Positions 25,150 to 57,813 of a stretch of DNA of 64,000 nt are shown here, piece after piece (within the stretch, counting starts at the first letter, position 1; each line of letters starts with the position of its first letter). Below the pieces are notes generated by a model. The model was not told where the DNA came from. It ran no database searches and saw nothing but the letters and a program-made list of their open reading frames with translations. Source of the stretch: an uncultured Ignavibacteriales bacterium (lineage in GTDB: Bacteria > Zixibacteria > MSB-5A5 > GN15 > FEB-12); assembly GCA_964464605.1 (NCBI GenBank), contig CAYXJN010000003.1, forward strand, positions 1 to 64,000, in the 5' to 3' direction. The position numbers were made by a program, and so were the translations under genes.

Positions 25150-25238
25150 GGAGAGATGGCCGAGTGGTTTAAGGCGCACGCCTGGAAAGCGTGTAAGGCT
25201 AATACCCTTCCAGGGTTCGAATCCCTGTCTCTCCGCCA
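25150..25238 (+). tRNA. tRNA-Ser(GGA) with encoded CCA; island integration site
   Basis: GGAGAGA/TCTCTCC acceptor stem, CACGC-ctGGAaa-GCGTG anticodon arm, long variable arm, GGTTCGAATCC, ends GCCA. Confidence 0.97.
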
Positions 25239-26493: not shown

Positions 26494-26680
26494 TTGCTCC
26501 CTTCAAGACATTCTTTACCCGTTTCTTCTCCAGCCACTTATCCACTTCCGACTGTCGAAACCGATATGAATCCCCAACTTTGAAACAGGGAATAGTACCT
26601 TCTCTTGCCCAACACCAAACTGTTTGGATATTCACGCCAAGATAACTACAAACATCCTTGGCCGTCCAAAGGGTACTCAT
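26441..26680 (-). CDS. Excisionase-like HTH DNA-binding protein
   Basis: LWTAKDVCSYLGVNIQTVWCWAREGTIPCFKVGDSYRFRQSEVDKWL (HTH_17/Xis pattern); convergent with the integrase. Confidence 0.88.
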   Translation of the reverse strand: MSTLWTAKDVCSYLGVNIQTVWCWAREGTIPCFKVGDSYRFRQSEVDKWLEKKRVKNVLKGAIISDSGQSASSHPLHEM

Positions 26681-28611
26681 ATAATTTCGCCCCCCTGTAC
26701 TAAGGAGTACCGAATCGCGAGCCCACCTCGACCAACAGTGGGTTTTTCTCGTACAGATTTGATCACACCCTGCTTAGTCATTGCTTTCAAAACATGAACT
26801 AACTGCTTTGGAGTTATTTCTTGGACTTGTCCCAATTCTACCAGCTCTTGCCGAGTACAGCTACCCGATTCACCAGAAAGGGCCTCAAGTATGACTTCTT
26901 TTACATGGCCGTATTTTGATCGCTCCCTGCGTTCCTCAGAATCGCCTGAGTATCTAACCTCCGTAGAGTCTGCGTCCGTGTCGACTATCTCAAAATCGAA
27001 ATCGTCAATCTCTTTACCGAATCGAGATTTAACATGCTTCACGGTCAATTCACCCGAAGCGCGCTTTTGTAGTACGAGTATTGAGTCGGAAAATGCGAGC
27101 TTTTCAGAGCTACCGCGGACAAGATGCTCAGGACTCATAGGAAGTGCACTCGGCTTTCTATGATGGTCAGCAATTACTACTGTTCGATTTGAGCCTCGAA
27201 CCAGTTCCTTTACTTTGGAGAAAACGGCTGCCATCGCTACCGATGAGTTCTCATCAGCCCGGTGAACTCGTACTAGGGAATCAATTATTATAAGACTTGG
27301 CTTTAATTCTTCTACGGCTGAAACTAAGAGTGCAAAGGCATCTTCATTGTCGAACAAGACTCCCTGTTGGACTGCAAACTCTATTGGGAGGCCACTTGTG
27401 GTGTCAAGTAAGCGCCCAGCGCACATTTTGGTCAGTCTTTCGGTTAGTAGACGTTCCGAGCTCTCTTCGTCAATTATGAGAACGCTTCCTTGCTGGCATT
27501 CAATCTGACCAAGCCATTTTGTGCCAGTGGCAACGGCAATTGCCAAATCGAGTAGCATCCAAGTCTTGCCACATCCACCCGGCCCCGAAACCGTTACTAC
27601 CCCCTGAGCAGGCGCAATCTGGTCAACCGCCCAAATAGGTTCTTCGTACTTTTTTCCAACAAGTTGCCCAAAAGAGACAGTTTTGATGCCCCGCGACCCG
27701 TTTTCCAGTTTCTCTCTATATATAGAGTGGGAATTGGAAATTGGGTCATTTGGCAAATATCTGTCCACTAATCCTGTAACAAGGTCGGTCAGTTCACTCT
27801 CGGGAAATCCACATTCTCGTGCTTTTGGTAAAAGCAAAACCAGAATATCTCCTGCTTCCCAGCCATCCCTCCTAAGCCTACCAGCAATCTTGGCGAAAGA
27901 CACATTCCGATTGCCTTCCTGCATATGGTTTAAGGTTTTCGATATCCATCCTAAGCCGTTTCGGACAGTCCGCGAGGGTAACACCTCTTGGGTTGGCAAT
28001 GATTCAAAGTCGATCAGCGAATATCTACGATCCGGTTCAAACTTGACCAAGTTTACTGGTACGGGTTGCTCTGGATTTTTCCAGTTGTAGCTTCCAGGCA
28101 GACGCAGTATCCGAGCCACTTCTGCCACACTGCTATCTCCACCAACGACCCCTGCCAAACGCCGAAGCAGTGATTCGAGATACTCCCTCTTTTCCACATC
28201 AGCGATATCTTCTGGCTCATGCAGCAACCAGTATCCATGATAACCGTTTCCAGAATCCACGATTAATGATGGAGGCAACGGACATCCTGTAAGCATCGAC
28301 AGCGCCTTTGTCTTGTCACCGCCAAAATCCTTTGCATCCACATCAGACCAAAGCGTAGTAACTGTTTTCACTCCTTCCTTTGTCCCAAAGCGGCCCTTCC
28401 GCGGACAAGCCCCGAAAAACACATCACTCTCTAGCTTGTCCAATTCAAGAGGAAAACGACTCGCATCAAACCGATCTCGAAGTGAAATCCATTCTCTAGT
28501 ACACCGACCATCCTTGTCGAATGTGCGGAATTCCAATTCACCAAGATCTGACGTTGAAAATATTGCCTGTAGAAATTCTGTAGCCGTAGCTTTGCGATTA
28601 GATTTTAACAC
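26677..28611 (-). CDS. RepB-type primase fused to PriCT-like and AAA_25 (RepA-like) helicase domains
   Basis: LWSDVD, PSLIVDSGNGYHGYW, RILRLPGS.N.K, EGNRN, Walker A GPGGCGKT, IIDSL, HHRK, RGSS. Confidence 0.88.
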   Translation of the reverse strand: MLKSNRKATATEFLQAIFSTSDLGELEFRTFDKDGRCTREWISLRDRFDASRFPLELDKLESDVFFGACPRKGRFGTKEGVKTVTTLWSDVDAKDFGGDKTKALSMLTGCPLPPSLIVDSGNGYHGYWLLHEPEDIADVEKREYLESLLRRLAGVVGGDSSVAEVARILRLPGSYNWKNPEQPVPVNLVKFEPDRRYSLIDFESLPTQEVLPSRTVRNGLGWISKTLNHMQEGNRNVSFAKIAGRLRRDGWEAGDILVLLLPKARECGFPESELTDLVTGLVDRYLPNDPISNSHSIYREKLENGSRGIKTVSFGQLVGKKYEEPIWAVDQIAPAQGVVTVSGPGGCGKTWMLLDLAIAVATGTKWLGQIECQQGSVLIIDEESSERLLTERLTKMCAGRLLDTTSGLPIEFAVQQGVLFDNEDAFALLVSAVEELKPSLIIIDSLVRVHRADENSSVAMAAVFSKVKELVRGSNRTVVIADHHRKPSALPMSPEHLVRGSSEKLAFSDSILVLQKRASGELTVKHVKSRFGKEIDDFDFEIVDTDADSTEVRYSGDSEERRERSKYGHVKEVILEALSGESGSCTRQELVELGQVQEITPKQLVHVLKAMTKQGVIKSVREKPTVGRGGLAIRYSLVQGGEII

Positions 28612-28805
28612 GTGAAAACCTCAAAAATAGCGTTGTAATTTCCCGCGCTTTAGCGCGGATTGACGCCGCTATAATTGGAACAATGGGGGGGCGAACTCGG
28701 TGGCTATCTGGTGTACAATTTGGGTTTTTTTATGTTCATAGGTTGGGAATCGATAGCAATCATGATTTAGTAAGAATACCTACTTAGGCAATAATCCAGA
28801 AAACA

Positions 28806-30395
28806 CTACAAATTCATCTGCCAATATCCCCTTGGCGAACGTTTGAAAAGTGCTTTGGTGGCTTCTTTATTTCTAAATACATCTCTAAACCTACTTCTGT
28901 TGTCATTCCTTCCGGCCTTGCGTTGATACTTTCTATTCAAATGAATAAAGATGTCAACTAGTGACTGCTCTGGGGTTCCGTTTTGCCATTGTTCGTGAAG
29001 GAACTTCGTTACTTGTGCTTCCAGCGGCGTTAAATTGAATGATTGGCCGCGAATTTTTACGGATCGATACGTTGTGTTGTATATGAAATCCCTATGCATT
29101 CCCTTTTTGACTTCCGGCGACTTTACCGACTTAACTTTGTCTAACACTTTGCGTTCTAACAAAATTTCCTTTCGCTCTCGGTACCATTCCGGCCATTCTG
29201 CATGAAGTAGATGCATCCGTCCGGCTATTTCAGCTAGCTTGGTGAGGAGTTTTGACTTTGCAGGAATTTCCCAAACGGTGCGGTATCTGATGGCTGGGAC
29301 GCTCAGCCCTCCATCCGATATTTCCATCGGAAAGTCCCTCTTGATACTGTCCAGCATACCTGTCATAAGTTCATGTTCAAAGAGGTATGCGAACAAAAGC
29401 AAAGACGTTAAGGATCCGGGTGTGTGAGTTTCATTGTAGAGTAATGGCGTGAGAGTTATATTGAGGCCATCATCGGCGTCGTACCACAACTTATCATTTT
29501 GTAATAGAATTTTCATTTCTTTCGCTTGAACTTGGTCTTTAATACGCTCTACAACGCTTTTGGAAATCGAACTATTACCGGAAAGCATCGCTTGTTGCGC
29601 ATCTCCTAAGACCTTTTGTCTAACCCGATACAGGGGTTCTCGGAGCAACTCTAATCTGCACAGTGTTTGGAAATCAATTCCATCTATAGTCGGTGCCTGT
29701 TCGTAGCTTAGCGGTTCGATGGGCACGCCAGGTGCAAGTTCCAAGCAACAATTTTTGGTGATTCCATATCCATTTGAGAAGCCTAAATAGTCCGAATTAC
29801 GAGATAATAGAGCAGCAGTCGGCACGTCCGATGTCTCGGGTGATTGCCAAATATACCGGATATTCATCCGTTTTGTGTGTGTGACTTTCCTTTGGGTAAA
29901 TACAGGAAAGCGGGTCTGCAATAGGTGGCCGAATAGCCGATAAAGCCAGTTAGAGCCTTGTGGAACAAAGGTCGAATATCCAGTTTCAATTAGGTGTGAC
30001 CTGTCTCGCAATTGCTGGTGTCTGAATTTGGTTATTGAATCTTGCAATTCTGTGCGTGTGAACAATGGAAAAAGATCTGAATAGAGGGCTGCTAACCCAT
30101 ACCATTGAGGCAATATCTGCCTGAAGTCGCATTGCTCGATTCGTGCTACTATATCATTTGGACGAATGCTGACACCGGCTTCCTCTATCAGTGAACGCAG
30201 TGTTTCAATTACATCACTTTCCGGAACGTCATACTCTGCCTTACCTATCGCTTCTTTAAGATCGGCGCGGTTTAGCCAATTACTGAGAGCTGAATCTGCA
30301 ACGTCTTCAGCGAGAATTGATTTACGGTAGCTCCAAGTAACTCGCTCCGATCTTGTCTTATTAGGTTTGGCTTTCCTTTTCACAGCTGTAACCAT
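28806..30395 (-). CDS. Hypothetical protein with a probable C-terminal winged-helix domain
   Basis: 529-aa ORF ending YRSVKIRGQSFNLTPLEAQVTKFLHEQWQNGTP...RFRDVFR...RGYWQMNL. Confidence 0.6.
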   Translation of the reverse strand: MVTAVKRKAKPNKTRSERVTWSYRKSILAEDVADSALSNWLNRADLKEAIGKAEYDVPESDVIETLRSLIEEAGVSIRPNDIVARIEQCDFRQILPQWYGLAALYSDLFPLFTRTELQDSITKFRHQQLRDRSHLIETGYSTFVPQGSNWLYRLFGHLLQTRFPVFTQRKVTHTKRMNIRYIWQSPETSDVPTAALLSRNSDYLGFSNGYGITKNCCLELAPGVPIEPLSYEQAPTIDGIDFQTLCRLELLREPLYRVRQKVLGDAQQAMLSGNSSISKSVVERIKDQVQAKEMKILLQNDKLWYDADDGLNITLTPLLYNETHTPGSLTSLLLFAYLFEHELMTGMLDSIKRDFPMEISDGGLSVPAIRYRTVWEIPAKSKLLTKLAEIAGRMHLLHAEWPEWYRERKEILLERKVLDKVKSVKSPEVKKGMHRDFIYNTTYRSVKIRGQSFNLTPLEAQVTKFLHEQWQNGTPEQSLVDIFIHLNRKYQRKAGRNDNRSRFRDVFRNKEATKALFKRSPRGYWQMNL

Positions 30396-30568
30396 TTTAT
30401 TAGGTTGAAATATCTACCGCCCATACTAAGACAAACTGTAACAAACTTCGCACTAAGAAAAGTATTTTTTGTGATGAAATTTCATGTCGAATTCGTCCAT
30501 TTTCGCACTCCTTTTGTCACACAATCGGTTATAATTATTCGGAAGCGCCCTATTGTTCATGGAGGACT

Positions 30569-31501
30569 ATGAAGACACTCGAGGTAACCGCGATTTCTGA
30601 TATCCGAAAGCAGACAAACCGCCAAAACTCCCTATCCTCAACTGGCCCGGTAACTGTCGCCGGTAAACAGAAATCCCGTTGGAACGCCGTCAAACACGGC
30701 CTGTTAGTGCGTGACGTTGCTGTTAGCGTCGGCGACTCGCCAGAATCAAAAAAAGACTTAACGGTCTTACACACGGCTTTACGGGCAGATTTTAATCCAG
30801 TTGGTACAATCGAAGAAATGTTAGTCGAACGAATCGCCGTTTCTTATTGGCGACTGAGTAGGTGCGTCCGCGCTGAATCAGGTGAAATTGCAATAGAGTC
30901 TGCCGGGAAATCCCACGAGTATTACCGCAACATGTCAGATGAAGTTGAAAGTATAGAAGATCGGGTGTACTTGGAACGCACCTTTTCCTCATATCGCAAA
31001 TCCTCATTTGGACTTATGCACGTGATAAGGCACTTAGAGCGTTTGCGTGAAGATGTTGAGTGCAAAGAGGATTTGGATGATAAAGAGTTCGAGAAACTGT
31101 TAACCTTGTACGGTCGCAAGGAGCAATCACTCGGTTTTAGGCTAAAAATGATGTCTTTGATCATGAAAGAACATGAATCGAAGCAGACTCATGAGTCAAA
31201 AAGCCGAAAACGGCGAACAAAAGGCTTGGTTAAGATAATGCTTGAGACAATTGACGCCGAAATCAAACGGTGCAAAGACTGCTTGGATGAGGTTTCAGAG
31301 GTCGAAAATACGCGCTTGGAAGCTAGCCTCAAAACTGCGGCGGTACCCCCTATTCAATGTATCGAGAAACTGCTTCGCTATGAATCAGCCATCGAACGCC
31401 AGCTATACAAAGCCCTCGACCAACTCGAAAGACTGCAACGCCAAAGAAAAGGGGATTACGTGCCGCCACCAGTCCAATTGGGAGTTTCGTTAGAAAGTTA
31501 A
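30569..31501 (+). CDS. Conserved hypothetical protein with an N.QN...STGP.T..GK..SR.NA.KHG motif
   Basis: GGAGG SD, N-terminal STGP motif, EEMLVERIA..YWRL.R, LLRYE..IERQLYKAL..LERLQ. Confidence 0.7.
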   Translation: MKTLEVTAISDIRKQTNRQNSLSSTGPVTVAGKQKSRWNAVKHGLLVRDVAVSVGDSPESKKDLTVLHTALRADFNPVGTIEEMLVERIAVSYWRLSRCVRAESGEIAIESAGKSHEYYRNMSDEVESIEDRVYLERTFSSYRKSSFGLMHVIRHLERLREDVECKEDLDDKEFEKLLTLYGRKEQSLGFRLKMMSLIMKEHESKQTHESKSRKRRTKGLVKIMLETIDAEIKRCKDCLDEVSEVENTRLEASLKTAAVPPIQCIEKLLRYESAIERQLYKALDQLERLQRQRKGDYVPPPVQLGVSLES

Positions 31502-31555
31502 TTCTGCGAAACGAAGCCGAATTAATTCCCTAAATACACCCTCGTTAGCATTGCC

Positions 31556-31584
31556 TTGACAGTCACATTCAGCGAAGCTATCTT
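31556..31584 (+). promoter_or_regulatory. Promoter of the R-M operon
   Basis: TTGACA-N17-TATCTT. Confidence 0.6.
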
Positions 31585-31706
31585 CGGACTCCATAAGGAG
31601 TTCGATTGCAAAATAGAAGGGCGAGTTGGATTGCTAGTTCTAATAACAATTCCTCAAAAGTGCGTTAGCAATGTCCGGTTTTATTTCTCCCATGTAGTCA
31701 TGGATT

Positions 31707-34076
31707 ATGAATAAGAAGGCACTTACTGAGGCGGATATCCGCACTAAATTCATCACGCCAGCTTTGGTTGGATTAAATAACAATAAGTGGAATTTGATGA
31801 CCCAAATTCGCGAAGAACATTACTTCACGAAAGGTCGGGTAATAGTTCGGGGGAAAACTGTCAAGCGCGGCGAAGCCATGAAAGCCGACTACTTACTTTC
31901 TTACAAACCGAACCTTCCCTTAGCCGTCCTTGAGGCAAAAGACAACAATCATTCAGTCAGCGATGGTATGCAACAAGCGCTCGAATACGCCGAGATTCTC
32001 GATGTTCCTTTCGCCTACAGTTCAAACGGAGATGCGTTCCTTGAACACGATCGTACTGTCACAAGTGGTATTGTCACACGCGAAATACCTCTCGACGAGT
32101 TTCCTACTCCAGAGGAACTCTGGAATCGTTATCGAAAGTCTAAAAACTACACGTCCGGCCAGGAAACCATTGCCACGCAAGACTACTACGACGACGGATC
32201 ACAAAAAACACCTCGTTACTACCAGCTAATTGCGATCAATCGTACCGTAGATGCCATTGCCCGAGGTGAGAACCGCATCTTGCTCATAATGGCAACCGGA
32301 ACAGGGAAGACCTATACAGCTTTTCAGATTATTTGGCGGCTTTGGAAATCCGGAGCCAAAAAACGTATTCTATTTCTTGTAGATCGCAACATCCTTGCCG
32401 ATCAAACCAAAACCAATGACTTTAAACCCTTCGGTCAAGCAATGACCAAGATTACCAACCGCACTGTCGATAAAGCCTTCGAAATTTACCTATCTCTTTA
32501 TCAAGCGGTAACAGGCACGGAAGAAGAACAAAATATTTACCAACAATTCTCTCCAGATTTTTTTGACTTAATAGTTATCGACGAATGTCACCGGGGGAGT
32601 GCCGCCGATGATGCCGCTTGGCGAAAAGTTCTAGAGTATTTTTCTTCAGCTACCCAAATAGGCCTTACTGCAACGCCAAAAGAAACCAAAGATATCTCCA
32701 ATATTGAATACTTTGGCGATCCAATTTATACGTACTCTCTGCGACAAGGTATTTCTGACGGCTTCTTAGCACCGTACAAAGTTGTCCGTATTGGCTTCGA
32801 CAAGGATTTAGAGGGCTGGCGACCAGAAGTCGGGCAAACAGACAAATATGATCAACTTATTGAGGACCGCGAATATAACGACCGTGATTTTGACCGTAAC
32901 CTAATCCTGGAAAAGAGAACAGAACTTGTAGCAGCCAAAGTAACCGAATTTCTCAAAGCAACCAACCGCTTCGCTAAGACAATCATTTTTTGCGAGGACA
33001 TTGATCACGCCGAGCGGATGCGACAAGCAATTGTAAATGCCAACCCCGACCTTGCGGCAGCGAATAGCAAGTACGTGATGCGCATCACAGGTGATAATGA
33101 TGAAGGCAAGGCGCAACTCGACAACTTCATCGATCCTGAATCTATATATCCCGTTATTGCCACTACCTCACGACTAATGTCTACCGGCGTAGACGCTCAA
33201 ACCTGCCATCTCATTGTTCTTGACCGTCGAATCGCTTCCATGACTGAGTTCAAGCAGATAATTGGGCGCGGCACCCGAATCAACGAGGACTACAACAAGT
33301 TCTTCTTTACGATTATGGACTTCAAACGAGCGACTGCGCTTTTTGCTGACCCTGACTTCGATGGTGACCCAGTTCAGATTTATTCTCCTGATCCAGATAA
33401 GTCTGTCGTACCACCAGACGAATCATCTGATGATCGAACGGAAGAAACGGACGACATCATCTTTTCAGATTCATTCGACGTTAATGAAGGGCAAGATTCA
33501 ATAAAAAGACCACCACGCTACACCGTAGATGACGTTGAGGTCAAAGTTGTTTCAGAACGAGAACAATACTTAGATGCGAATGGAAAACTTATCACTGGAT
33601 CGCTAAAAGATTATTCCCGCAAAACCGTACTCAAAGCGTTTGCCTCCCTTGATGATTTCCTAACTGTTTGGAACAGTGCCGAAAAGAAGCGTGTAATCAT
33701 AGAGGAACTTTCGGCCAAAGGCGTCTATTTCGACGAACTTGCGAAACAAGTGGGGCGTGATTATGACGCTTTTGATTTAATTTGTCATGTTGCTTTTGAC
33801 CAACCGCCTCTCACACGGAGAGAAAGAGCTGAAAAGGTAAAAAAACGAAACGTCTTTGCCAAATATGGCAACGAAGCCCGTTCTATTCTTGATGCTTTAC
33901 TTCAGAAATACTCGGATAACGGAATCACCAGTGTTGAATCCCTCGAAATACTTAAAGTCGATCCACTCACTAACTTCGGCACACCGATGGAAATTGTAAG
34001 TTTCTTCGGAGGTAAACCTGGTTATCTCGCTGCCATTCGTGAGCTTGAAATAGCCATTTATCAGAAAGTTGCTTGA
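31707..34076 (+). CDS. hsdR: Type I restriction endonuclease subunit R (EcoAI/EcoEI-like)
   Basis: Nuclease motif D-x13-EAK, ATGTGKT, DECH, TATP, QIIGRGTR. Confidence 0.96.
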   Translation: MNKKALTEADIRTKFITPALVGLNNNKWNLMTQIREEHYFTKGRVIVRGKTVKRGEAMKADYLLSYKPNLPLAVLEAKDNNHSVSDGMQQALEYAEILDVPFAYSSNGDAFLEHDRTVTSGIVTREIPLDEFPTPEELWNRYRKSKNYTSGQETIATQDYYDDGSQKTPRYYQLIAINRTVDAIARGENRILLIMATGTGKTYTAFQIIWRLWKSGAKKRILFLVDRNILADQTKTNDFKPFGQAMTKITNRTVDKAFEIYLSLYQAVTGTEEEQNIYQQFSPDFFDLIVIDECHRGSAADDAAWRKVLEYFSSATQIGLTATPKETKDISNIEYFGDPIYTYSLRQGISDGFLAPYKVVRIGFDKDLEGWRPEVGQTDKYDQLIEDREYNDRDFDRNLILEKRTELVAAKVTEFLKATNRFAKTIIFCEDIDHAERMRQAIVNANPDLAAANSKYVMRITGDNDEGKAQLDNFIDPESIYPVIATTSRLMSTGVDAQTCHLIVLDRRIASMTEFKQIIGRGTRINEDYNKFFFTIMDFKRATALFADPDFDGDPVQIYSPDPDKSVVPPDESSDDRTEETDDIIFSDSFDVNEGQDSIKRPPRYTVDDVEVKVVSEREQYLDANGKLITGSLKDYSRKTVLKAFASLDDFLTVWNSAEKKRVIIEELSAKGVYFDELAKQVGRDYDAFDLICHVAFDQPPLTRRERAEKVKKRNVFAKYGNEARSILDALLQKYSDNGITSVESLEILKVDPLTNFGTPMEIVSFFGGKPGYLAAIRELEIAIYQKVA

Positions 34077-34079
34077 TCT

Positions 34080-35531
34080 ATGCCTAATGTTACTAATCTT
34101 GTCAAAACCATTCAGGATATTATGCGTAAAGACGCCGGTACATATGGTGACGCGCAACGTCTCGAACAACTTGGCTGGATGTTCTTTCTAAAAATTTTAG
34201 ACGACCATCAAATTGAAATGGAAGTCCTTAAGGAGAGCTACAAGTCTCCACTCCCAGTGCACCTTCAATGGTCGAGCTGGGCAACTGACCCTGAAGGTAT
34301 TACAGGTGAAGGCTTGCTCGACTTCGTAAATAACATGCTCCTGCCAAAGTTGAAGACCTTGACTGCCGGAAATGATAAGATGGCTGGAGTAATCCGAATG
34401 GCTTTCGATGATGCCAATAATTATATGAAAAATGGTACGTTGATGCGGCAAGTCATCAACAAAATCAATGAAATTAACTTTAATATTTCAGATGACCGTC
34501 ACATGTTCGGTGACATCTATGAAAAGCTCCTAAAAGATCTTCAATCTGCTGGAAATGCAGGTGAATTCTATACGCCTCGCGCCGTAACTCAATTTATTGT
34601 CGAACAGGTGGATCCTCGACTTGGCGAAACCATCCTTGATCCGGCCAGCGGTACAGGCGGCTTTCTTGTTTGCGCAATCGAACACTTGCGCAAACAGGCA
34701 AAAACTGAATATGACCATAGAGTTATTCAAAACTGTTTCTCCGGCATTGAAAAAAAACATCTCCCACACATCCTTTGTATGACCAATCTCCTTTTGCACG
34801 GAATCGAAGTACCTTCAACTGTCCGCCATGATAACACTCTTGCCCGTCCATTACGGGACTGGTCTCCGAAAGAGCGTGTTGACGTGATCGTCACCAATCC
34901 CCCATTCGGGGGAATGGAAGAGGATGGCATCGAGTCAAACTATCCTGCTGAGTTCCGCACTCGTGAAACAGCTGATCTCTTTCTCGTGCTTATCATGAAA
35001 ATCCTAAAACCAGGCGGTCGAGCCGGACTTGTATTACCAGACGGTACTCTTTTTGGTGAAGGTGTAAAAACACGAATCAAAGAAGCCCTACTTACTGAGT
35101 GCAACTTGCACACGATAGTTCGACTACCGAATGGAGTTTTTAACCCCTATACCAGTATTCGAACAAACCTTCTCTTCTTTACCAAAGGTCAACCCACTAC
35201 TGAGGTCTGGTACTATGAACACCCATATCCTCCTGGAGCCAAAAGTTATAATAAAGGCAGACCCATTAGTATTAATGAATTTGTACCTGAACGTACGTGG
35301 TGGGACAATCGCGTGGAAAACGAGCAAGCGTGGCGAGTTTCCATCGATCAGATAAAAGCGAGCAATTACAGTCTTGATCTCAAAAACCCACATAACTCTG
35401 ACACCGGACCCGGTGACGTAGATCATCTTCTCCCAGAATACGAAAAACTTCTAAAACAGATTGCGGAAACTCGTGCTATTCTGAAAAAGGAACTCCAACA
35501 AGCGCTCACTACTGCTGGGACGGATTCATGA
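34080..35531 (+). CDS. hsdM: Type I R-M N6-adenine methyltransferase subunit
   Basis: GEFYTPR, DPASGTGGFL, NPPF, IVRLP.GVF.PY. Confidence 0.97.
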   Translation: MPNVTNLVKTIQDIMRKDAGTYGDAQRLEQLGWMFFLKILDDHQIEMEVLKESYKSPLPVHLQWSSWATDPEGITGEGLLDFVNNMLLPKLKTLTAGNDKMAGVIRMAFDDANNYMKNGTLMRQVINKINEINFNISDDRHMFGDIYEKLLKDLQSAGNAGEFYTPRAVTQFIVEQVDPRLGETILDPASGTGGFLVCAIEHLRKQAKTEYDHRVIQNCFSGIEKKHLPHILCMTNLLLHGIEVPSTVRHDNTLARPLRDWSPKERVDVIVTNPPFGGMEEDGIESNYPAEFRTRETADLFLVLIMKILKPGGRAGLVLPDGTLFGEGVKTRIKEALLTECNLHTIVRLPNGVFNPYTSIRTNLLFFTKGQPTTEVWYYEHPYPPGAKSYNKGRPISINEFVPERTWWDNRVENEQAWRVSIDQIKASNYSLDLKNPHNSDTGPGDVDHLLPEYEKLLKQIAETRAILKKELQQALTTAGTDS

Positions 35532-37111
35532 CGTCAAATATTTTTTTTGAGAAGTTTGAGCAATTCGCGGAGACTCCCAATGCAGTGGCAAAAATGCGCG
35601 AGTTAGTGTTACAACTCGCCACTTGTGGAAAACTGGTTATGCAATTGCCTGATGACGAACCTACCTCCATGTTGCTTACTCGCATTCATCAGCACTTTGA
35701 TTTACGACAAAACCGAAAGGAACCATTTGGGCTTAATTTAGAGCCGTTAAAACACGATAATCTTCCCGAGATCCCAGCGAGTTGGGAATGGGTGCGTCTC
35801 GGTAATGTCGTTGATTACGGTTCCTCGGATAAAGTGGAGTCCACCAACATCCCCGAAGACGCTTGGCTTCTGGACCTTGAGGACATTGAGAAGGATACCT
35901 CGCGTTTATTACAACGAAAGACATTTGGCCAAAGTCCTTCAAAGAGTACGAAGACTGCGTTCTTAGTGGGTGACGTTCTCTATGGGAAGCTTCGACCGTA
36001 CTTAAATAAAGTTATAGTCGCCGATGCTCCCGGTTATTGCACAACAGAGATAATTCCAATCCGCACATTTGGCTTCATAGAACCTGCCTATCTTTGTTAT
36101 GCGCTCAAACGACCGGCCTTTATCTCGTATGCAATTTCAAAAAGTTATGGGATGAATCTCCCAAGACTCGGGACAGAAGACGCTCAGCAGGCACCGTTTC
36201 CACTCCCACCCCTCGCTGAGCAAAAGCGAATTGTTACAAAGGTAGATGAGTTGATGGTGTTATGTGATCGGCTGGAGAAGCAGCAAAAAGAAAGAGAAAC
36301 ACAACATACTACGCTCGCCCGCGCTTCGCTATCCCGCTTTGCTGAAGCACCCACACCTCAAAATCTCGATCTACTCTTCCACCCATCTTTTATCATTACT
36401 CCAGACGACCTCCGCAAATCTATCCTTACTCTCGCGATCCAAGGCAAGCTTGTACCTCAAGACCCGAATGGCGAACCGACTACACCCTACTTAGAAAATG
36501 AAGCTCCTTTCAACATACCGCCTGGCTGGAAATGGAAACCGCTCGGCATTTTGGGCACATGTAAAACAGGAAAAACGCCACCCACAGGTGACCCAGTAAA
36601 TTACGGTGCAGGGTTTCCCTTTATCGGGCCGGGTCAAATCACATTCGGCGGCATCATAACCCCGCCAGAAAAAACACTAACCCAAACAGGGCTGGCGAAT
36701 AGCACAGAGGCATGTGCTGGAGATATCCTCATGGTTTGCATAGGAGGTTCTATCGGTAAAGCTGCAATTTGCAGTGAGACCGTTGGTTTCAACCAGCAGA
36801 TAAATTCGATTCGATTGGAGCGTGATCTTCCTACATTTGTGTACGGAGTATTCAAATCAGCCTATTTCCAAGAACAGATGCTTGCTCGCGCTTCAGGATC
36901 CGCAACCCCGATCATCAACAAAGGTAAATGGGAGCAAATTTTAATTCCTTTGCCACCCCTCGCCGAACAACACCGTATCATAGCCAAAGTGGATCAATTG
37001 ATGTCATTAGTTGATGAATTGGAAACACAGCTTGTAACCTCTCATGAAACCGGCAAGAAACTCATGGAAGCCATTGTTTCCGAACTTACCTCAGGAGTAA
37101 ACTATGCCTGA
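35528..37111 (+). CDS. hsdS: Type I R-M specificity subunit
   Basis: Two TRDs, each preceded by IP..W.W..LG and followed by PLPPLAEQ.RI..KVD.LM. Confidence 0.95.
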   Translation: MTSNIFFEKFEQFAETPNAVAKMRELVLQLATCGKLVMQLPDDEPTSMLLTRIHQHFDLRQNRKEPFGLNLEPLKHDNLPEIPASWEWVRLGNVVDYGSSDKVESTNIPEDAWLLDLEDIEKDTSRLLQRKTFGQSPSKSTKTAFLVGDVLYGKLRPYLNKVIVADAPGYCTTEIIPIRTFGFIEPAYLCYALKRPAFISYAISKSYGMNLPRLGTEDAQQAPFPLPPLAEQKRIVTKVDELMVLCDRLEKQQKERETQHTTLARASLSRFAEAPTPQNLDLLFHPSFIITPDDLRKSILTLAIQGKLVPQDPNGEPTTPYLENEAPFNIPPGWKWKPLGILGTCKTGKTPPTGDPVNYGAGFPFIGPGQITFGGIITPPEKTLTQTGLANSTEACAGDILMVCIGGSIGKAAICSETVGFNQQINSIRLERDLPTFVYGVFKSAYFQEQMLARASGSATPIINKGKWEQILIPLPPLAEQHRIIAKVDQLMSLVDELETQLVTSHETGKKLMEAIVSELTSGVNYA

Positions 37112-38210
37112 TCGTTCGCATCTATCTTTTGATCAAGAAGCAACTCTTGAAGAACTCGCCGGCGTCGGTAAGAATAACCGATTCAACGAAGCTATTGATG
37201 ATGAGGAGTTTGAGGAACTCCAGGTCATTTGTAAACGTGGAACAGAAGAAATTCGTCTCGCTAAACCGAGTCGAGCTTTCTATTTCGGTGACCGGATTCG
37301 TTACGAAGAGGAAGCCAAACGCTTCGATCAACAAGAGAAATCGCGCACGCTAAATACTGATCTGTTTCCTCGTAATCTATCTCGTTTTGAAGATCTTAAG
37401 AAATCCTGCCAGCGTGGCTTCGTCATCCCCTTTGTGGGTGCTGGCATGTCGAAAAGTGCCGGATGCCCGGAGTGGAAAGAATACCTTCTCAATTTTTGCG
37501 CAGAAGCGAACATAGACCCTGAAGCCACACGGGCTCGTCTTGAAGTAAACGGCGACTACGAAGGAGTGATGAATGACATCGTTACTACCCTCGGAGAAAA
37601 TCGCTTCAATCTCGACTTTGAACGCGATTTTAGAACACCTGATGTGATAACAGGGGCTGTAACACTGCTACCGAGACTTTTTGATAGTTGTGTGATTACT
37701 ACAAACTTTGATCGTATTCTTGAGAAAGTTTACGAAGAAGATGGCAAAACGTTTACCGAAAAAGTGACTGGTCGTGGCCAAGTCAGTGCATTTTTTCGTG
37801 CTATTCCTGCCGGAGAACGCTATCTATTGAAACTTCACGGTAATCTTGACAATGCAGTGGAACGGGTCCTAAACAGAGACGAATATAATACCGCCTATGG
37901 TAACGATGGTAACATCCAGGATGGTTGTTGTATTCCCAAACTTTTAAAGCGCCTATTCAGTAGTTACAGTTTTCTTTTCCTTGGTTGTAGTCTCTCTGCA
38001 GATCGTACAATCCAAACCTGTATGAGGGTTGCCCAACTTGAAGGGCAGGAGAACTTACCACATCACTATGCGTTGTTAGCGTGTCCGGAAAATGTAGACA
38101 AAAAGCGCATCATCGATCAGCGTCTCGCGGATGCCCACATCTCCCCAATCTGGTTTCCCGAAGGCGAATTCCAATACATAGAAGAGATTCTCCAACTCTT
38201 ACTCGATTGA
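37104..38210 (+). CDS. SIR2-like (SIR2_2) domain protein, putative NADase effector
   Basis: PFVGAGMS, ITTNFD..LE, LKLHG, FLFLGCSL. Overlaps the hsdS stop and has an AGGAG SD. Confidence 0.88.
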   Translation: MPDRSHLSFDQEATLEELAGVGKNNRFNEAIDDEEFEELQVICKRGTEEIRLAKPSRAFYFGDRIRYEEEAKRFDQQEKSRTLNTDLFPRNLSRFEDLKKSCQRGFVIPFVGAGMSKSAGCPEWKEYLLNFCAEANIDPEATRARLEVNGDYEGVMNDIVTTLGENRFNLDFERDFRTPDVITGAVTLLPRLFDSCVITTNFDRILEKVYEEDGKTFTEKVTGRGQVSAFFRAIPAGERYLLKLHGNLDNAVERVLNRDEYNTAYGNDGNIQDGCCIPKLLKRLFSSYSFLFLGCSLSADRTIQTCMRVAQLEGQENLPHHYALLACPENVDKKRIIDQRLADAHISPIWFPEGEFQYIEEILQLLLD

Positions 38211-38348
38211 TTGTTGTTACGTTCTGGCAAATGTGATATTCCCTCACCCCAATATCTTGGGGTTTGAGTCTTCCAGGACCCAAGACGCCCCCAAATCCCT
38301 TTGATGTGATTCTCACTTCGGGGATCAGCCATAGTTTGACTGGTAGCT

Positions 38349-38975
38349 ATGCAACCTGCTACCCTCCAAACCGTCGAGCAACTGCGCCAAACCCTGCTTA
38401 CCAAATGGCCGGACGCTACCCCTCGTGTCCCTCTCTACACCGTACCTGCTAACGGCGCTTCAGTTCAAAATCCCTTACAAATCGGTTTAGGGGAAATAGC
38501 CGAACTGTCCGGTACGGAATCATCCGGCAAGACTTCCCTCGCTTCCCGGATGCTCACAGCACAATCCCAAGAACCTGCCTACTGGCTTTCGTTGTTCGGC
38601 CGGGTCTATTTTCTCCCCACCACCCATAGGATTCACCTCGAAGTCGCAAGTCTCAAAGAAGCTATAACCGTTTGCCAGACTATCATCGGCGCGGCTGCTA
38701 TGCGTCGCATTGTTCTCGATTTATCAAACCTGCAATCTATCAAAATCAGCAAGGATGGCCTGACAGCTATATGGTACCATTTACGGAGAATCGTTGTTCG
38801 GCAGTACGCCCATCTGATTATCCTGACACCGGAGAACGCAACCTTGTTACCGGATAGCATCGTTACCAAAAAAATTCACGTTTCAAGGAATACGCACGGG
38901 GCAATTCAGGCACACATACTCAGAAGCCGAACGGGGGGTGAAGGGATGCACTATGTCGTTGCCGATACCGCCTGA
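38349..38975 (+). CDS. imuA: ImuA/RecA-like mutasome accessory protein
   Basis: GEIAELSGTESSGKTS P-loop, IVLDL; directly upstream of imuB-dnaE2. Confidence 0.75.
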   Translation: MQPATLQTVEQLRQTLLTKWPDATPRVPLYTVPANGASVQNPLQIGLGEIAELSGTESSGKTSLASRMLTAQSQEPAYWLSLFGRVYFLPTTHRIHLEVASLKEAITVCQTIIGAAAMRRIVLDLSNLQSIKISKDGLTAIWYHLRRIVVRQYAHLIILTPENATLLPDSIVTKKIHVSRNTHGAIQAHILRSRTGGEGMHYVVADTA

Positions 38976-40434
38976 CCGCCGGGTAGCTTGTGTCCTATTC
39001 CCTAATTTTTCGCTGAACAGGCGAATTACGCCTGACATTACCGAACTACCTGTTGTACTTACTCACACGACAGCTAAAGCGATTGTCGTCATCGCGCTGA
39101 ATCACTCGGCGCGACAACATGGTCTCGTGCCGGGCATGACACTCTCACAAGCCGAATCCTACTGTCGGACAGTCAAGCAAATTGCTTTCAATCGTGACCA
39201 AGACATCGAATATCTTGAGCAATTATCAGAACAATTTACCTCACTAACGCCGCGAATTGAAGTCGATAAATCTGAGATCGGGATTCTCTACATTTCCCTT
39301 CACGGCATTTTCCTACTCTATAAATCTGAGCAAGAATTCATCGACGCATTGGTAACAAAAGGGAAGCAAACCAAACTGCCGTTTCAGATCGGTGTTGCTG
39401 AAAACAAACTGCTTGCCCGGATGGTCGCACAGGACGCTACCGAAAATTCATACCTGATTCTTAATAAAGATAGCCAGACCGATTTTCTCTCCCCACTACC
39501 CATAGAACGACTGCAAACCGACCCATACGTTGCCGACCTCTTTGAGTCACTCGGTATTGATACCATTGAGAAACTCAAAACCATTCCCACCAATGAACTG
39601 GCGGCTCGCTTTGGCGAAACTGGCTCAAAGCTGGCAAACGATGCAAAGGGTATCGACCGAAGCCACTTTCATTTCAAAACAGAACAGGAAGTCACCCAAA
39701 TTACTAAGTGCCTCGATTATCCGCTTACAAATTCAGAATCTCTCTTGCAAGACCTACTGCCTGACCTGACTACTGCTTTGGAGAAACTCGCCGCCAGTAA
39801 TCGCGGGTGCAAGGCTCTTTTACTCAAATTCATCACCGAAAACAAGCAGTGCATCGTTAAACAAGTCACGATTGCCTATTCTTCTGCCAGCATTGCTGTT
39901 TTCCAGCGTCAAATTCGACTCGCTTTGCCAAACTACGATTTCGATTCCGGCGTAATTGAATGGCGGATTCAGCTATGCGAAATCTCACCTTTGCCCAACC
40001 AGCAAACTGACCTCGTTACCGCCGCTACAACTGTCATTCATTCTGACAGGTGTGTTGTTCAACAGCGCGTATTGACCGCTACAAAAGGATTCCTGCCGGA
40101 AGATTTCTCAGCATTACAAAACTCTGAGCAAACGGACACAGGCGAAAGTCAGACGACTTGCCTGTTTTCTCTCAAAACGGAAGGCTTGCGGTTATTCACT
40201 AATCCCCAAGTGGTATCAGTCATGGCTAAGGAGGGTATTCTTAACTTCTTTTCTTGGGAGCATACCGACTATCGCGTAAACAGACAGTTCGGGGCTTGGG
40301 TGCTTTCCGGTCGATGGTGGGACAAGCAGTATGAGCGTTGGTACTTTGAAGTCGTAACAACTGACTATGGCCGCTATCTGCTTTTCTTCGATGCACTCGA
40401 TTCACAATGGTATCTGCATGGCATTTATGACTGA
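38953..40434 (+). CDS. imuB: Y-family polymerase-like ImuB
   Basis: RVACV..P.F, ARQHGL.PGMTL.QA, LTPRIE, LGI.TI..L.....ELAARFG, C-terminal GRWW...R.YF...WYLHGIYD. Confidence 0.88.
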   Translation: MSLPIPPDRRVACVLFPNFSLNRRITPDITELPVVLTHTTAKAIVVIALNHSARQHGLVPGMTLSQAESYCRTVKQIAFNRDQDIEYLEQLSEQFTSLTPRIEVDKSEIGILYISLHGIFLLYKSEQEFIDALVTKGKQTKLPFQIGVAENKLLARMVAQDATENSYLILNKDSQTDFLSPLPIERLQTDPYVADLFESLGIDTIEKLKTIPTNELAARFGETGSKLANDAKGIDRSHFHFKTEQEVTQITKCLDYPLTNSESLLQDLLPDLTTALEKLAASNRGCKALLLKFITENKQCIVKQVTIAYSSASIAVFQRQIRLALPNYDFDSGVIEWRIQLCEISPLPNQQTDLVTAATTVIHSDRCVVQQRVLTATKGFLPEDFSALQNSEQTDTGESQTTCLFSLKTEGLRLFTNPQVVSVMAKEGILNFFSWEHTDYRVNRQFGAWVLSGRWWDKQYERWYFEVVTTDYGRYLLFFDALDSQWYLHGIYD

Positions 40435-43400
40435 GGCAAATCAGATGTCGTATGTCGAACTGCATACTCATTCCAACTTCTCATTCTTGGATGGTGCTTC
40501 GCACCCGCCTGAACTCGTTAAGCGAGCAAGTGAACTTGCCTATCCAACACTCGCTCTCACTGACAACAACGGTCTGTATGGAATTATCCAGTTTAGCGAA
40601 TCCTGCAAGTTGCTTGGCGTCCGACCAATAATCGGCTCAGAAATCACATTGGAGAATGATTCGCACCTTGTCCTATTGGTTAAGAACAAACAGGGGTATG
40701 TCAACCTCTCGCAACTACTGAGTAAAACACTATCGGAATCAGAAAAAGGTGTATGCAAAATAAAACCGGAATTGCTGAACAGTCACGCCGAAGGCTTGAT
40801 TGCCCTTTCCAGTTTCGAGTCCGGCAAAATCGGTGCGTCGCTCCAAGCCGACGACCTGTTTCAAGCCAAGCGAATCGCAAATCAGTACAGGGAGTTATTC
40901 GGTGCCGAAAACTTCTATCTCGAATTGAACAATCATCGACTCCCTACCCATTCGCTGTTACTTCAAAAGACCTCTGTACTCGGCAAAGAGTTAGCAATCC
41001 CATGCGTTGCGACCAATAGTGTCCGGTATGCAAAGAAAGAAGACCGAAAAATTCAGGATTTCCTTACTGCCATTCGGCATCATACAACGCTCGACAATGC
41101 CGGGCGGTTACTCTATCCCAATGGTGAACGGTACTTGAAACCGGCTAAAGCAATGAAATCCCTCTTTGCCAAATATCCCGAATCAATTGAAAACAGTGTG
41201 GTAATTGCATCTCGCTGTTATTTTTCCCGCGACTATCTTTCCACTTCATTGCCCGATTTTCCTGTTCCTCCCGGATATACAGCAGACAGATACCTTAGAA
41301 AGCTTGTCCAAGAAGGTGCCGAGCAGCGATACGGTGAAATCACCGAGCCAGTCAGCAGGCAACTTGAGCATGAACTATCACTCATCATCCGGCTCGATCT
41401 TGCCGGATATTTTCTTATCGTTTGGGATATTGTCCGCTTTTGTAGAGAGCATGAAATTCTCTGTCAGGGACGCGGCTCTGCCGCCAATTCAGTCGTTTGC
41501 TATTCCCTCGCTATTACTGCAATCGACCCCATTAAGCTCAAACTGCTATTCGAGCGGTTTCTTTCGGACGGACGGAAAGAACCGCCGGACATCGACATCG
41601 ACATTGCTCATACCCGGCGCGAAGAAGTAATTCAATATGTCTATGCCAAGTATGGCCGGGATCACGCCGCACTGGTAGCCAATGTTATTTGCTACCGAGC
41701 GCGATCAGCGGTTCGGGAAGTCGGTAAAGCAATGGGCTTCTCAATGGAAGATTGCAACAAACTCTCTAAGCTGCTCGATCACTACCGAGACGGCGAAGAC
41801 CTCAAAGAGCGGTTGCGGGAAGCTGGCTTTGACTTACAAAGTAAACGAATCAGCTTGCTCTTTGAGCTTGTCGGAAGGGTGCGCTCATTCCCCCGACATC
41901 TTGGTATTCATGTTGGCGGGATGGTCATCACGAAGACGCCACTCTCGCATACTGTACCGATTGAAAAAGCTACTATGCCAAATAGGACAGTGATTCAGTG
42001 GGACAAAGACGATACCGCCGACGCTCGGCTTGTAAAGATCGACCTGCTCGGACTCGGTGAATTGACCTGTATCGACATCGCCTTGAAACTGATTCAACAG
42101 CACAAGGGGATTGAAATCGACCTTGCCAAGCTGTCGTATGAAGACCCAAAGGTCTTTGACTTCATTTGCAAAGCAGAAACTCTCGGTGTCTTTCAGATTG
42201 AATCACGCGCTCAGATGATAACACTCCCTCGAATGAAGCCCCGTTCATTTTACGATCTTGTGGTGGAAGTCGCCATTATCCGTCCCGGCCCGATTCAAGG
42301 GGATATGGTTCACCCCTACTTACGCCGTCGCAACGGTGAAGAAGAAGTTACTTACCCACACCCGAATCTGAAACCCGTGTTAGAGCGCACGCTGGGCGTT
42401 CCGCTTTTTCAGGAACAGGGAATGCAGGTAGTGATGCTGGCCGCCGGATTTACGGCAGGTGAAGCAGACGAACTTCGCCGTGCAATGGGACATAAGCGGT
42501 CACATGAAAAAATGGCCGCTTTGTATCATCGAATTGTCGAAGGAATGGTTAAGAACGGGTACAAACCGGAAATGGCGGAAAAAGTGTTCATGCAATTGGC
42601 CGCCTTCGCTGACTTTGGCTTTGCGGAATCACACGCCGCTTCGTTTGCTCTCTTGGTCTATGTCTCCGCATGGTTGAAGCTCTACTACCCAACCGAATTC
42701 TATTGTGCTCTGCTTAACGCTCAACCAATGGGCTTTTACTCAACTTCCAGCATCGTTTTTGAGGGAAAGCGTCGTGGAGTCAGGTTCTTGCCAGTAAGTG
42801 TCACAGAAAGCCAGTGGCATTGCACGATGGAAGGGGATTCAGTTCGGATCGGATTTCGATTTATCAGTTCGCTTGGCAAAGCCGCCAAAGAGAAAATCGA
42901 ATCAGCCCTTGAAAAGGGGTGCTTCGTTTCACTCAGGGATTTTGTCCAGCGCACCGGACTATCTGAACGGGCTTTGACACAAATTGCCAAAGTTGGAGCC
43001 TTCAATTCATTGGGGAAAAGCCGGAGGGATTCATTGTGGGAGGTAATTGAAGTCGCCCAGCCGAATTTTCCCCCACTACCCCTATTTGACCAACCGGAAA
43101 CCAAGACCCAGTTTGAACCGATGGACTTGCAGCAAAAGCTCAAAACCGATTTCTCAGTCATGGGGCTAACAACCGGATCACACCCTATGACTTTGATTCG
43201 AGAGCGATTGAAGCGACAAAATGTGCTTTCATCGGCGGACTTTTGCACAGTATCTAATTCGTGTATAATTATTGTCGCTGGCTTGGTAATTATCCGCCAA
43301 CAGCCGGAAACCGCTAAGGGGATTATTTTCGCCACTCTTGAAGATGAATTCGGGTTTATCAATCTGGTTGTCAAGCCGCAATACAAGAAAAAGTACCGGG

Positions 43401-57706: not shown

Positions 57707-57813
57707 CGCCTTAAACCCGGTGGTATACTTCTTGTCTTGTCCGTTCCATGATGTGGGATAATACAAGAGCGAATGGGCTAAGGCAATTATAAGGATACGA
57801 ACCAAACATCACT

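Follow-up and report, generated by a model that had tools for sequence, protein, structure and literature searches.

A SIR2 protein of the NADase type encoded directly behind hsdS in type I restriction operons: a candidate restriction-linked suicide effector

Why would a type I restriction-modification (R-M) operon carry a gene for a SIR2 protein directly behind its specificity gene? This question is raised by a 64,000-nucleotide stretch of bacterial DNA (contig CAYXJN010000003.1, positions 1 to 64,000; hereafter the window), in which hsdR, hsdM, hsdS and a SIR2 gene follow one another on the same strand (Table 1). A first, sequence-only reading of this DNA had suggested that the SIR2 protein, here called P0001, is an NADase that responds to inhibition of the R-M complex. 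We investigated how consistently relatives of P0001 accompany R-M genes, what kind of enzyme they are likely to be, and which explanations fit their position. Taken as a whole, the results make a new variant of R-M-linked abortive defence credible.

How consistently is the family linked to hsdS? We examined 160 loci fetched by SIR2 similarity, 80 from contigs of one genome per species (the best 80 of 97) and 80 from metagenomes (the best 80 of 209), the latter fetched with a 9-sequence alignment of distant members. Hidden Markov models (HMMs) of the first 104 residues of the protein, its N-terminal domain (N-domain), and of its core were run over all open reading frames (ORFs) of these loci, and HsdS and HsdM ORFs were detected with phmmer panels of Pfam-confirmed sequences. 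Before counting, 6 duplicates, 14 loci without a scorable ORF, and 14 N-domain-negative fragments were dropped. The N-domain HMM matches 59 distinct SIR2 ORFs, and for 56 of them the upstream DNA extends for 500 bp or more. In 53 of these 56 cases the SIR2 ORF start lies close to the end of an HsdS ORF, which falls -35 to +211 nt from it (within 44 nt in 51 cases). The three exceptions are L021, where hsdS is present and the start of the SIR2 ORF is over-extended; L031, where one Mrr_cat gene is inserted before SIR2; and L032, a deletion remnant with an N-terminal fragment of HsdR. No N-domain SIR2 gene (0 of 56) lies in a locus devoid of hsd remains.

Intact homologs that lack the N-domain served as a control. 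These proteins of 324-1795 aa, mostly long DSR-like fusions, have an HsdS or HsdM ORF in 1 of 67 loci. The sequence-only reading had named homologs independent of R-M loci as the observation that would speak against it, and the contrast of 53/56 directly behind hsdS with 1/67 among controls is the opposite of that observation. Consistent linkage to type I hsd genes is also the mark of PrrC, the accessory suicide effector encoded likewise inside the type I hsd locus of EcoprrI (the E. coli prr locus), and the SIR2 family shows it.

In the window, the ORF calls leave a 3-nt gap between hsdR and hsdM, a 4-nt overlap between hsdM and hsdS, and an 8-nt overlap between hsdS and SIR2. The SIR2 ATG occupies 37104-37106, within ...ATGCCTGA, and the hsdS stop codon occupies 37109-37111. 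Because this ATG lies in ...AGGAGTAAACTATGCCTGA, the start codon of SIR2 and its AGGAG site both fall inside the end of hsdS. Judged from gene spacing, the four genes appear to form one operon. The gene arrangement and the 8-nt overlap described in the sequence-only reading are borne out by a tight plus-strand block at 31707-38210 and by the coordinates 37104 and 37111. The promoter-like site 5' of hsdR is a weak pointer, since such sites are no commoner in the region than shuffled expectation.

Is the restriction enzyme itself intact? The window HsdR scores 1186 bits against NF046051, the EcoAI/FtnUII equivalog (cut-off 550), and also matches ResIII, EcoEI_R_C, and the PADLOC model REase_I. 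It retains D61, E76, and K78 in ...KADYLL...LEAKD..., which we take to be the residues with a catalytic nuclease role in EcoAI. HsdM matches N6_Mtase (2e-73), HsdM_N, and PADLOC MTase_I (4e-217), and HsdS matches Methylase_S twice as well as Specificity_I. An alignment of 25 SIR2-linked HsdS proteins shows conserved N-terminal, central, and C-terminal regions and two variable target-recognition domains. With an equivalog HsdR, intact HsdM and HsdS, and the nuclease motif present, the system is a type IB (EcoAI/FtnUII) R-M system. The idea that SIR2 substitutes for a dead nuclease is ruled out by the retention of D61/E76/K78. Since the nuclease motif is kept, SIR2 adds to restriction rather than replacing it.

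The same slot is occupied in two families of R-M systems. The EcoAI-type order, hsdR-hsdM-hsdS-SIR2, is that of the close clade and of two others that are more distant (31-42% core identity), with HsdR and HsdM either 74-85% or 57-63% identical to those of the window. In the second family the order is hsdM-hsdS-SIR2-(cargo)-hsdR; SIR2 has 337-350 aa, HsdM 567-676 aa, and HsdR 1030-1086 aa with HSDR_N, SWI2_SNF2, and a HindI-like C-terminal domain. Here the SIR2 start overlaps the hsdS stop by 1-4 nt, mostly by 4 nt, and in L096 the hsdR start overlaps the SIR2 stop too. Additional cargo in this family is located past SIR2 and not between hsdS and SIR2. It consists of HEC-01 (AAA_21 + DUF4276; PADLOC 1e-142) or of a 469-aa SLFN/AlbA_2-HATPase_c_4 protein (loci in Table 1). 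The prrC gene is likewise placed between hsdS and hsdR, as SIR2 is in this second family.

Three side observations may be added. In the second R-M family, the gap between SIR2 and hsdR is often filled by one of the two cargo genes, giving three layers in one operon. In L114 (1469-3348), the hsdS 5' of SIR2 has an N-terminal Polbeta nucleotidyltransferase domain and is preceded by an NTase_sub_bind (HEPN-like) gene, so that a toxin-antitoxin-like pair has apparently been fused into the specificity subunit. In L142 (1513-3357), the N-domain and core (residues 18-368) are followed by a C-terminal extension of about 245 residues without a Pfam match, which may be a fused sensor or read-through; a GmrSD_N gene comes next.

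P0001 is not a rare protein. A search of 90% clusters yields 679 relatives at E <= 1e-3; nearly all of the best 120 have 365-402 aa and 68-79% identity over the full length, and they come from several phyla, where the source names the organism. Among 50% representatives there are 3222 matches, 306 of them at E <= 1e-30, with a wider set of 340-420 aa at 30-43% identity. Members of the family are frequent among environmental bacteria from many phyla. A scan of viral contigs turned up one distant relative (34%, residues 67-367), and by that scan the family is not a phage gene. Among 285 genomes of the host's phylum, a full-length member was found in the window genome only, with 0 of 107 in the host's own family; the cassette is therefore an import.

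How closely has SIR2 travelled with its R-M genes? Our quick maximum-likelihood tree covers 57 members of the family and the cores of 8 long forms; support is by the Shimodaira-Hasegawa-like approximate likelihood ratio test (SH-aLRT) only, and several long branches are flagged. All short forms make one clade against the long forms (SH-aLRT 98). All 30 of 30 EcoAI-labelled members and the window make one sub-clade (SH-aLRT 95), with the members linked to the second R-M family outside it. Host phyla are thoroughly mixed within the clades, so whole cassettes are transferred horizontally. In 19 cassettes with complete R, M, and SIR2, distances correlate at r = 0.91 for SIR2 with HsdM (0 of 2000 permutations as high), 0.91 for SIR2 with HsdR, and 0.96 for HsdM with HsdR. 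Within the main clade (n = 13), the values are 0.63 for SIR2 with HsdM (0/2000), 0.46 for SIR2 with HsdR (2/2000), and 0.39 for HsdM with HsdR (51/2000). The rate of SIR2 evolution is about double that of HsdM (mean p-distance 0.31 vs 0.15).

What kind of enzyme is P0001 likely to be? Its sole Pfam domain is SIR2_2 (PF13289, residues 196-349, 6e-23, 81.9 bits, cut-off 24.5), and its PADLOC matches are only to the SIR2 parts of ThsA, LmuA, Dsr1, and two candidate families. The motifs GAGMS (at 112), TTNFD (199), and KLHG (243), which the sequence-only reading had listed as intact and NADase-type, are all there, and G112, G114, N201, D203, and H245 are invariant in 57/57 family members. In sequence (phmmer against ThsA, 9e-8), N201 aligns with ThsA N112 and H245 with ThsA H152. 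These two we take to be the catalytic residues of ThsA, and the PDB titles DSR2(H171A) and KomC(H146N) agree.

The predicted structure points the same way. An AlphaFold2 model from a 94-sequence alignment is a single body with a predicted local distance difference test score (pLDDT) of 90.6 and a predicted template modelling score of 0.87. Foldseek ranks BcThsA (2e-13), KomC, SeThsA, and DSR2 at the top. A second, Foldseek-independent structure search gives Z 25.3 for SeThsA (root-mean-square deviation 2.8, 260 aligned), 23.8 for KomC, 22.8 for KomBC, 19.6 for Avs5, 19.0 for FAM118B, 16.5 for PsSIR2, and 14.4 for HerA-Sir2. Deacetylase sirtuins reach Z 10-12 (Sir2Af 12.2, SIRT1 11.8) and SirTM 9.6. 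According to their entry titles, the BcThsA, KomC/KomBC, Avs5, and FAM118B structures were deposited as helical or filament assemblies. By modelled fold and invariant catalytic residues, the core of P0001 classes as a defence-type NADase, so that NADase activity is predicted; this supports what had been proposed for the SIR2 domain.

The N-domain is the signature of the family. It had been described as an acidic extension of about 90 residues, with the motifs EAIDDEEFEE (at 29) and YEEE (at 67). Residues 1-40 are indeed acidic (12 D/E vs 3 K/R, isoelectric point 4.05), but residues 41-95 are basic. Behind this acidic head, the model predicts a beta-hairpin at 42-51, and helices at 55-62, 64-82, and 91-103. 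F27, D63, Y67, F95, and L98 are nearly invariant in 57 sequences, and the region is common to the wider 340-420-aa set, with the recurring motifs 'FNxxLD(D/E)' and 'PSxxLFxxDxxxY'. Modelled alone (pLDDT 78.7) and compared with about 48,000 PDB representatives, the N-domain had a best Z of 3.5, which is no meaningful match, and in whole-protein searches residues 1-80 fell outside every structural match; the absence of a PDB match for a predicted domain is no proof of a new fold. A search of ESM Atlas with residues 1-104 gave a best score of 0.83 to clusters without a name and so no lead. Mimicry of part of an Hsd subunit was sought with hhalign, and the N-domain profile showed no similarity to HsdR, HsdM, or the HsdS alignment (probabilities of at most 0.2%). 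At equal core identity to P0001 (30-42%), N-domains are 18-32% identical to that of P0001 if linked to EcoAI-type systems and 6-15% if linked to HindI-type systems. This pattern of sequence divergence would fit an adaptor matched to the R-M family.

How does P0001 compare with known systems? PrrC is described as encoded within a type IC hsd locus, kept silent by its physical contact with EcoprrI, and switched on by Stp, an inhibitor from phage T4 (PMC1484252; PMC12707154). PrrC homologs are reported to be always linked to EcoprrI homologs, and a family-specific 'PrrC box' rich in acidic and aromatic residues is proposed to face the R-M enzyme (PMC1484252). PrrC differs in being an ABC-ATPase fused to an RNase that targets tRNA-Lys, whereas P0001 has a SIR2 domain of the NADase type, for which the target would be NAD+; moreover, PrrC has an NTPase regulatory module and P0001 has none. 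With SIR2_2 as its sole domain and neither an ABC-type NTPase nor an anticodon-nuclease domain, P0001 is no member of the PrrC family, though it may be PrrC-like in action. Silencing by the R-M enzyme and activation through it have been shown for PrrC and would apply to the SIR2 family by analogy.

Thoeris ThsA is the closest solved fold and sequence to the SIR2 core of P0001, with the catalytic Asn and His aligned. However, ThsA has a SLOG domain, whereas P0001 has none (the PADLOC ThsA model is matched over 12-231 of 478) and ends at residue 368; conversely, ThsA lacks the N-terminal domain of P0001, and no TIR/ThsB gene is found among the neighbours of P0001. Outside the family, the closest relatives by sequence are the DSR1/DSR2-like long fusions, which have an NADase-type SIR2 at the N-terminus (28-37% core identity). 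Their chains continue in cis for another 150-1400 residues, and hsd is nearby in 1/67 loci, whereas P0001 ends with the SIR2 core; DSR1 and DSR2 are proteins of some 1000 aa or longer in which the C-terminal part is a large sensor, and the 368 aa of P0001 match the Dsr1 model over 28-235 of 1227. KomC (Kongming), SIR2-HerA, and the SIR2-APAZ/pAgo of SPARSA are, like P0001, small SIR2 proteins without a large sensor region; they belong to the same fold class and use separately encoded partners. The neighbours of P0001 are instead Hsd subunits, and its N-domain is specific to the hsdS-linked family. No HerA, pAgo/APAZ, KomA/KomB, TIR, or STAND protein was found among the ten ORFs at 26677-43543 or in the wider flanks scanned, and these family scans agree with the earlier statement that no HerA, pAgo, TIR, or STAND partner is adjacent.

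Like the gene for P0001, the HEC families, TgvAB, and the PDC-S21/DUF4917 genes are defence-type genes located within a type I operon or as its last gene, and HEC-01 stands directly beside SIR2 in several loci. The P0001 family differs from HEC and TgvAB in being found only behind hsdS and in co-diverging with the R-M genes. P0001 matches neither PDC-S21 (E <= 1e-3) nor DUF4917 (E <= 0.01), and its matches to PDC-S25 and PDC-S65 amount to 18-25 bits over about 70-110 residues, well short of full length. No model of PADLOC v2.0.0 covers the SIR2 family, and a full-text literature search returned no description of SIR2 coupled to hsdS, so the search for a matching described system that the earlier reading called for came back empty at these two levels. 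The term 'SIR2' is absent from the main text of the 'guilt-by-embedding' preprint, and its supplements, with 3,231 embedded families, may list the M-S-SIR2-R form (bioRxiv 10.1101/2024.01.29.577857). The parts, namely SIR2 NADases, type I R-M, and an R-M-linked suicide effector, are known; as far as could be seen, their combination, the dedicated adaptor domain, and the obligate coupling to hsdS are undescribed.

What might the fourth gene do? It would encode a small NAD+-hydrolysing SIR2 effector dedicated to a type I R-M enzyme, with no sensor domain of its own. The N-domain of about 100 residues would be an adaptor tying SIR2 to the HsdM2-HsdS core; it differs from one R-M family to another, whereas conservation of the catalytic core is about equal. 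The NADase would be kept inactive as long as the R-M enzyme works. The trigger would be blockage of the complex by an anti-restriction factor of phage or plasmid origin, either a DNA mimic of the Ocr or ArdA kind or a peptide of the Stp kind; switch-on would probably occur by SIR2-SIR2 assembly, as in the nearest structural relatives, and NAD+ depletion would then halt the infected cell. We consider it probable that SIR2 is functionally coupled to the R-M enzyme, in one polarity or the other, because it has no sensor in cis, is confined to the position behind hsdS, groups by R-M family in its tree, and diverges in step with HsdM. The guard polarity, a second strike by analogy with PrrC, is a tentative choice to which we give somewhat less than an even chance; we favour it because of the PrrC precedent (silenced by EcoprrI, activated by Stp). 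A broader proposal is more speculative, and we would call it somewhat unlikely: type I enzymes may be programmable sensors for a plug-in SIR2 NADase, in which a fast-evolving, R-M-matched adaptor docks on HsdM2-HsdS and reads whether a DNA mimic blocks the complex, or whether the complex has stalled or dimerised on foreign DNA, giving a two-layer, restrict-or-die defence. The acidic head of the adaptor might serve as a built-in DNA mimic in the DNA-binding groove, displaced by the anti-restriction protein of the invader.

The evidence of linkage, co-divergence, and fold applies equally if the polarity is reversed, with the R-M complex as a DNA sensor and SIR2 as a second effector fired by unmethylated foreign DNA. 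SIR2 proteins on HsdM2-HsdS-HsdR would be brought together when complexes dimerise or collide in translocation and would so become active NADases, much as target-bound pAgo assembles SIR2 in SPARSA, and the loss of NAD+ would back up slow cutting. The filament or helical structures nearest to P0001 (BcThsA, KomC/KomBC, Avs5, FAM118B) fit such activation by induced proximity. Moreover, the closest proteins outside the family have long C-terminal regions of their own in cis, so a sensor in trans is the natural reading of the short form. Decayed loci also bear on polarity. Three loci (L005, L009, and L011) have an intact SIR2 beside a broken operon, with a close HsdM on another contig in the case of L005. 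In the metagenome-assembled genomes of L009 and L011, SIR2 is intact (N and H present) next to remnants of hsdS, and a single query found no close HsdM in these assemblies, which may be incomplete. If real, these two cases imply that SIR2 is not lethal without an R-M partner, and they speak mildly against a simple guard that is silenced by R-M and unleashed when R-M is gone; they are what one expects of a SIR2 that is inert without its sensor. Nevertheless, we regard the reversed polarity, whose binding and activation steps are a proposal, as unlikely: it would gain little host range beyond R-M recognition, would risk self-intoxication whenever unmodified chromosomal sites arise, and runs opposite to the logic of PrrC, the one characterised accessory gene in the slot.

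Several further points weigh against the proposed explanation. The loci were reached via conserved SIR2 peptide patterns and are not an exhaustive sample, and the phmmer hsd panels came from two R-M families, so that other type I families in the control loci could have been missed. Strict linkage and co-divergence can come from a shared transfer history without a physical link, and shared descent by itself could give the same pattern of N-domain divergence. Binding to the complex, NADase activity, the trigger, and phage defence by abortive infection are steps that we infer. In general, type I R-M loci serve as landing sites for defence genes of unrelated kinds: other EcoAI-family loci carry AAA_15/21 ATPase, GmrSD_N-SLFN, TIR-STAND, or HTH + Macro genes, and HEC-01 and SLFN genes adjoin SIR2 in the second R-M family. 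In 401 sampled gammaproteobacterial genomes, 14 had an EcoAI-family HsdR at 55% identity or above and 2 of these 14 had SIR2 (each tally includes one genome flagged unpublished, on which no claim is based); an EcoAI-family R-M enzyme therefore needs no SIR2.

Such facts would suit an independent passenger, that is, a self-contained single-gene defence or selfish cassette with its own trigger via the N-domain, for which the type I operon is a safe landing site, co-transferred and co-expressed. Independent systems embedded in type I R-M, BREX, and DISARM have been described, and HEC-05 and HEC-06 are stated, among the HECs, to work alone (bioRxiv 10.1101/2024.01.29.577857). TgvAB, embedded in a type I operon, is reported to protect when cloned without the rest of the cluster, with 10- to 100-fold less protection against several phages when cloned alone (PMC11411939). 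That unrelated cargo is frequent in type I loci of the same family, that SIR2 outlasts R-M decay, and that most EcoAI-family systems lack SIR2 would all follow naturally. However, a passenger should also occur outside hsd loci and switch between R-M families, and neither was seen, given 53/56 genes behind hsdS, 0/56 without hsd remains, and one clade per R-M family. The correlation of SIR2 with HsdM, 0.91 overall and 0.63 in the main clade, where it is at least as tight as that of HsdR with HsdM, and the constancy of a slot directly after hsdS, with codons overlapping or nearly abutting and other cargo beyond, also tell against it, and we think this explanation quite unlikely. We find it very improbable that SIR2 acts as an R-M regulator rather than as a bulk NADase, deacylating or ADP-ribosylating an Hsd subunit in order, for instance, to tune restriction while the cassette becomes established in a new host or during restriction alleviation. 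SIR2 domains can deacylate or ADP-ribosylate proteins, as established for sirtuins and SirTM (PMC9503650), and control of restriction on entry would be a real problem for a cassette that is mobile across many phyla. Yet defence NADases (Z 19-25) are structurally far closer to the protein than are deacetylase sirtuins (Z 10-12) or SirTM (Z 9.6), the Pfam match is to SIR2_2 and not to classical SIR2, and 12 of the 14 gammaproteobacterial genomes with an EcoAI-family HsdR do without SIR2.

Why would coupling of SIR2 to the R-M enzyme matter? PrrC has been studied since 1990, and its family is narrow. To our knowledge, it is the sole accessory effector wired into a type I restriction enzyme. If SIR2 were wired in the same manner, R-M-coupled suicide would be a general design with different weapons, an RNase in one case and an NADase in the other. 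It would also add a new switch for SIR2 NADases, with the R-M complex as a partner beside HerA, pAgo, KomB, and sensors in cis. Finally, the cassette would offer a simple, clonable four-gene system for asking how a cell senses a disarmed restriction enzyme or foreign DNA.

Related operons carry further genes. Small ORFs lie in or beside the hsd genes of two SIR2 cassettes (L005 6093-6527, L017 5053-5505), with SIR2 intact in both; in N-terminal sequence they presumably resemble transposases of the IS200/Y1 type. The SIR2-less R-M locus closest to that of the window (L203, G418:C59, 7191-10020; HsdR 78%, HsdM 87%) has its hsdR and hsdM split by stops. The place of SIR2 is taken there by an HTH gene (377 aa), a 186-aa ORF, and a Macro-domain protein (345 aa), and the Macro domain is another NAD/ADP-ribose-related domain in the SIR2 slot. 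In another EcoAI-family system (L207, G553:C1, 6354-8807), a TIR-STAND (nSTAND3) gene of 817 aa lies between hsdR and hsdM.

Table 1. Positions of the SIR2 cassette and its parts, of the island genes around it, and of cargo-bearing loci (numbered within the sequence named)
Feature	Sequence	Position	Strand	Description
tRNA-Ser	window	25150-25238	+	left end of cassette-bearing island
Tyrosine integrase	window	25345-26493	+	left end of cassette-bearing island
AAA_25 / RepB-primase-like gene	window	26677-28611	-	island gene
ORF	window	28806-30395	-	529 aa; between island primase gene and hsdR
ORF	window	30569-31501	+	310 aa; between island primase gene and hsdR
Promoter-like site TTGACA-17-TATCTT	window	31556-31584	+	5' of hsdR; best consensus match in region (10/12)
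hsdR	window	31707-34076	+	789 aa; type I restriction subunit, EcoAI/FtnUII (type IB) family
hsdM	window	34080-35531	+	483 aa; type I methyltransferase subunit
hsdS	window	35528-37111	+	527 aa; specificity subunit
AGGAG, ribosome-binding site of SIR2 gene	window	37093-37097	+	read from sequence; 6 nt 5' of ATG
SIR2_2 gene (protein P0001)	window	37104-38210	+	368 aa; predicted NADase effector
N-terminal domain of P0001	window	37104-37415	+	residues 1-104; family signature, candidate R-M adaptor
SIR2 Rossmann core of P0001	window	37416-38207	+	G112-A-G114, N201, D203, H245
Cargo-bearing locus, second R-M family	L100	9023-10797		
Cargo-bearing locus, second R-M family	L107	2988-4397		
Cargo-bearing locus, second R-M family	L110	9026-10435		

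The cassette of the window lies on an island that starts at tRNA-Ser; a search of the window for an att site gave no second copy of the tRNA-Ser 3' end, and direct repeats of chance size only. The two ORFs between the island primase gene and hsdR match no Pfam, NCBIfam, or PADLOC family, had no tblastn match in the first 80 related loci (the genome set), and are not counted in the system. Directly past SIR2, at 38349-43543 on the plus strand, lie an imuA-like ORF (208 aa, no family match), an imuB-like Y-family polymerase (IMS), and a dnaE2-type Pol III alpha subunit (1058 aa), which make up an error-prone 'mutasome' cassette. Farther along, two paralogous Ser/Thr kinase-TPR proteins of 797 aa are encoded about 9 kb apart on the plus strand (48421-50814 and 57814-60207), the second adjoining a GAF-SpoIIE phosphatase gene on the minus strand (56411-57805).

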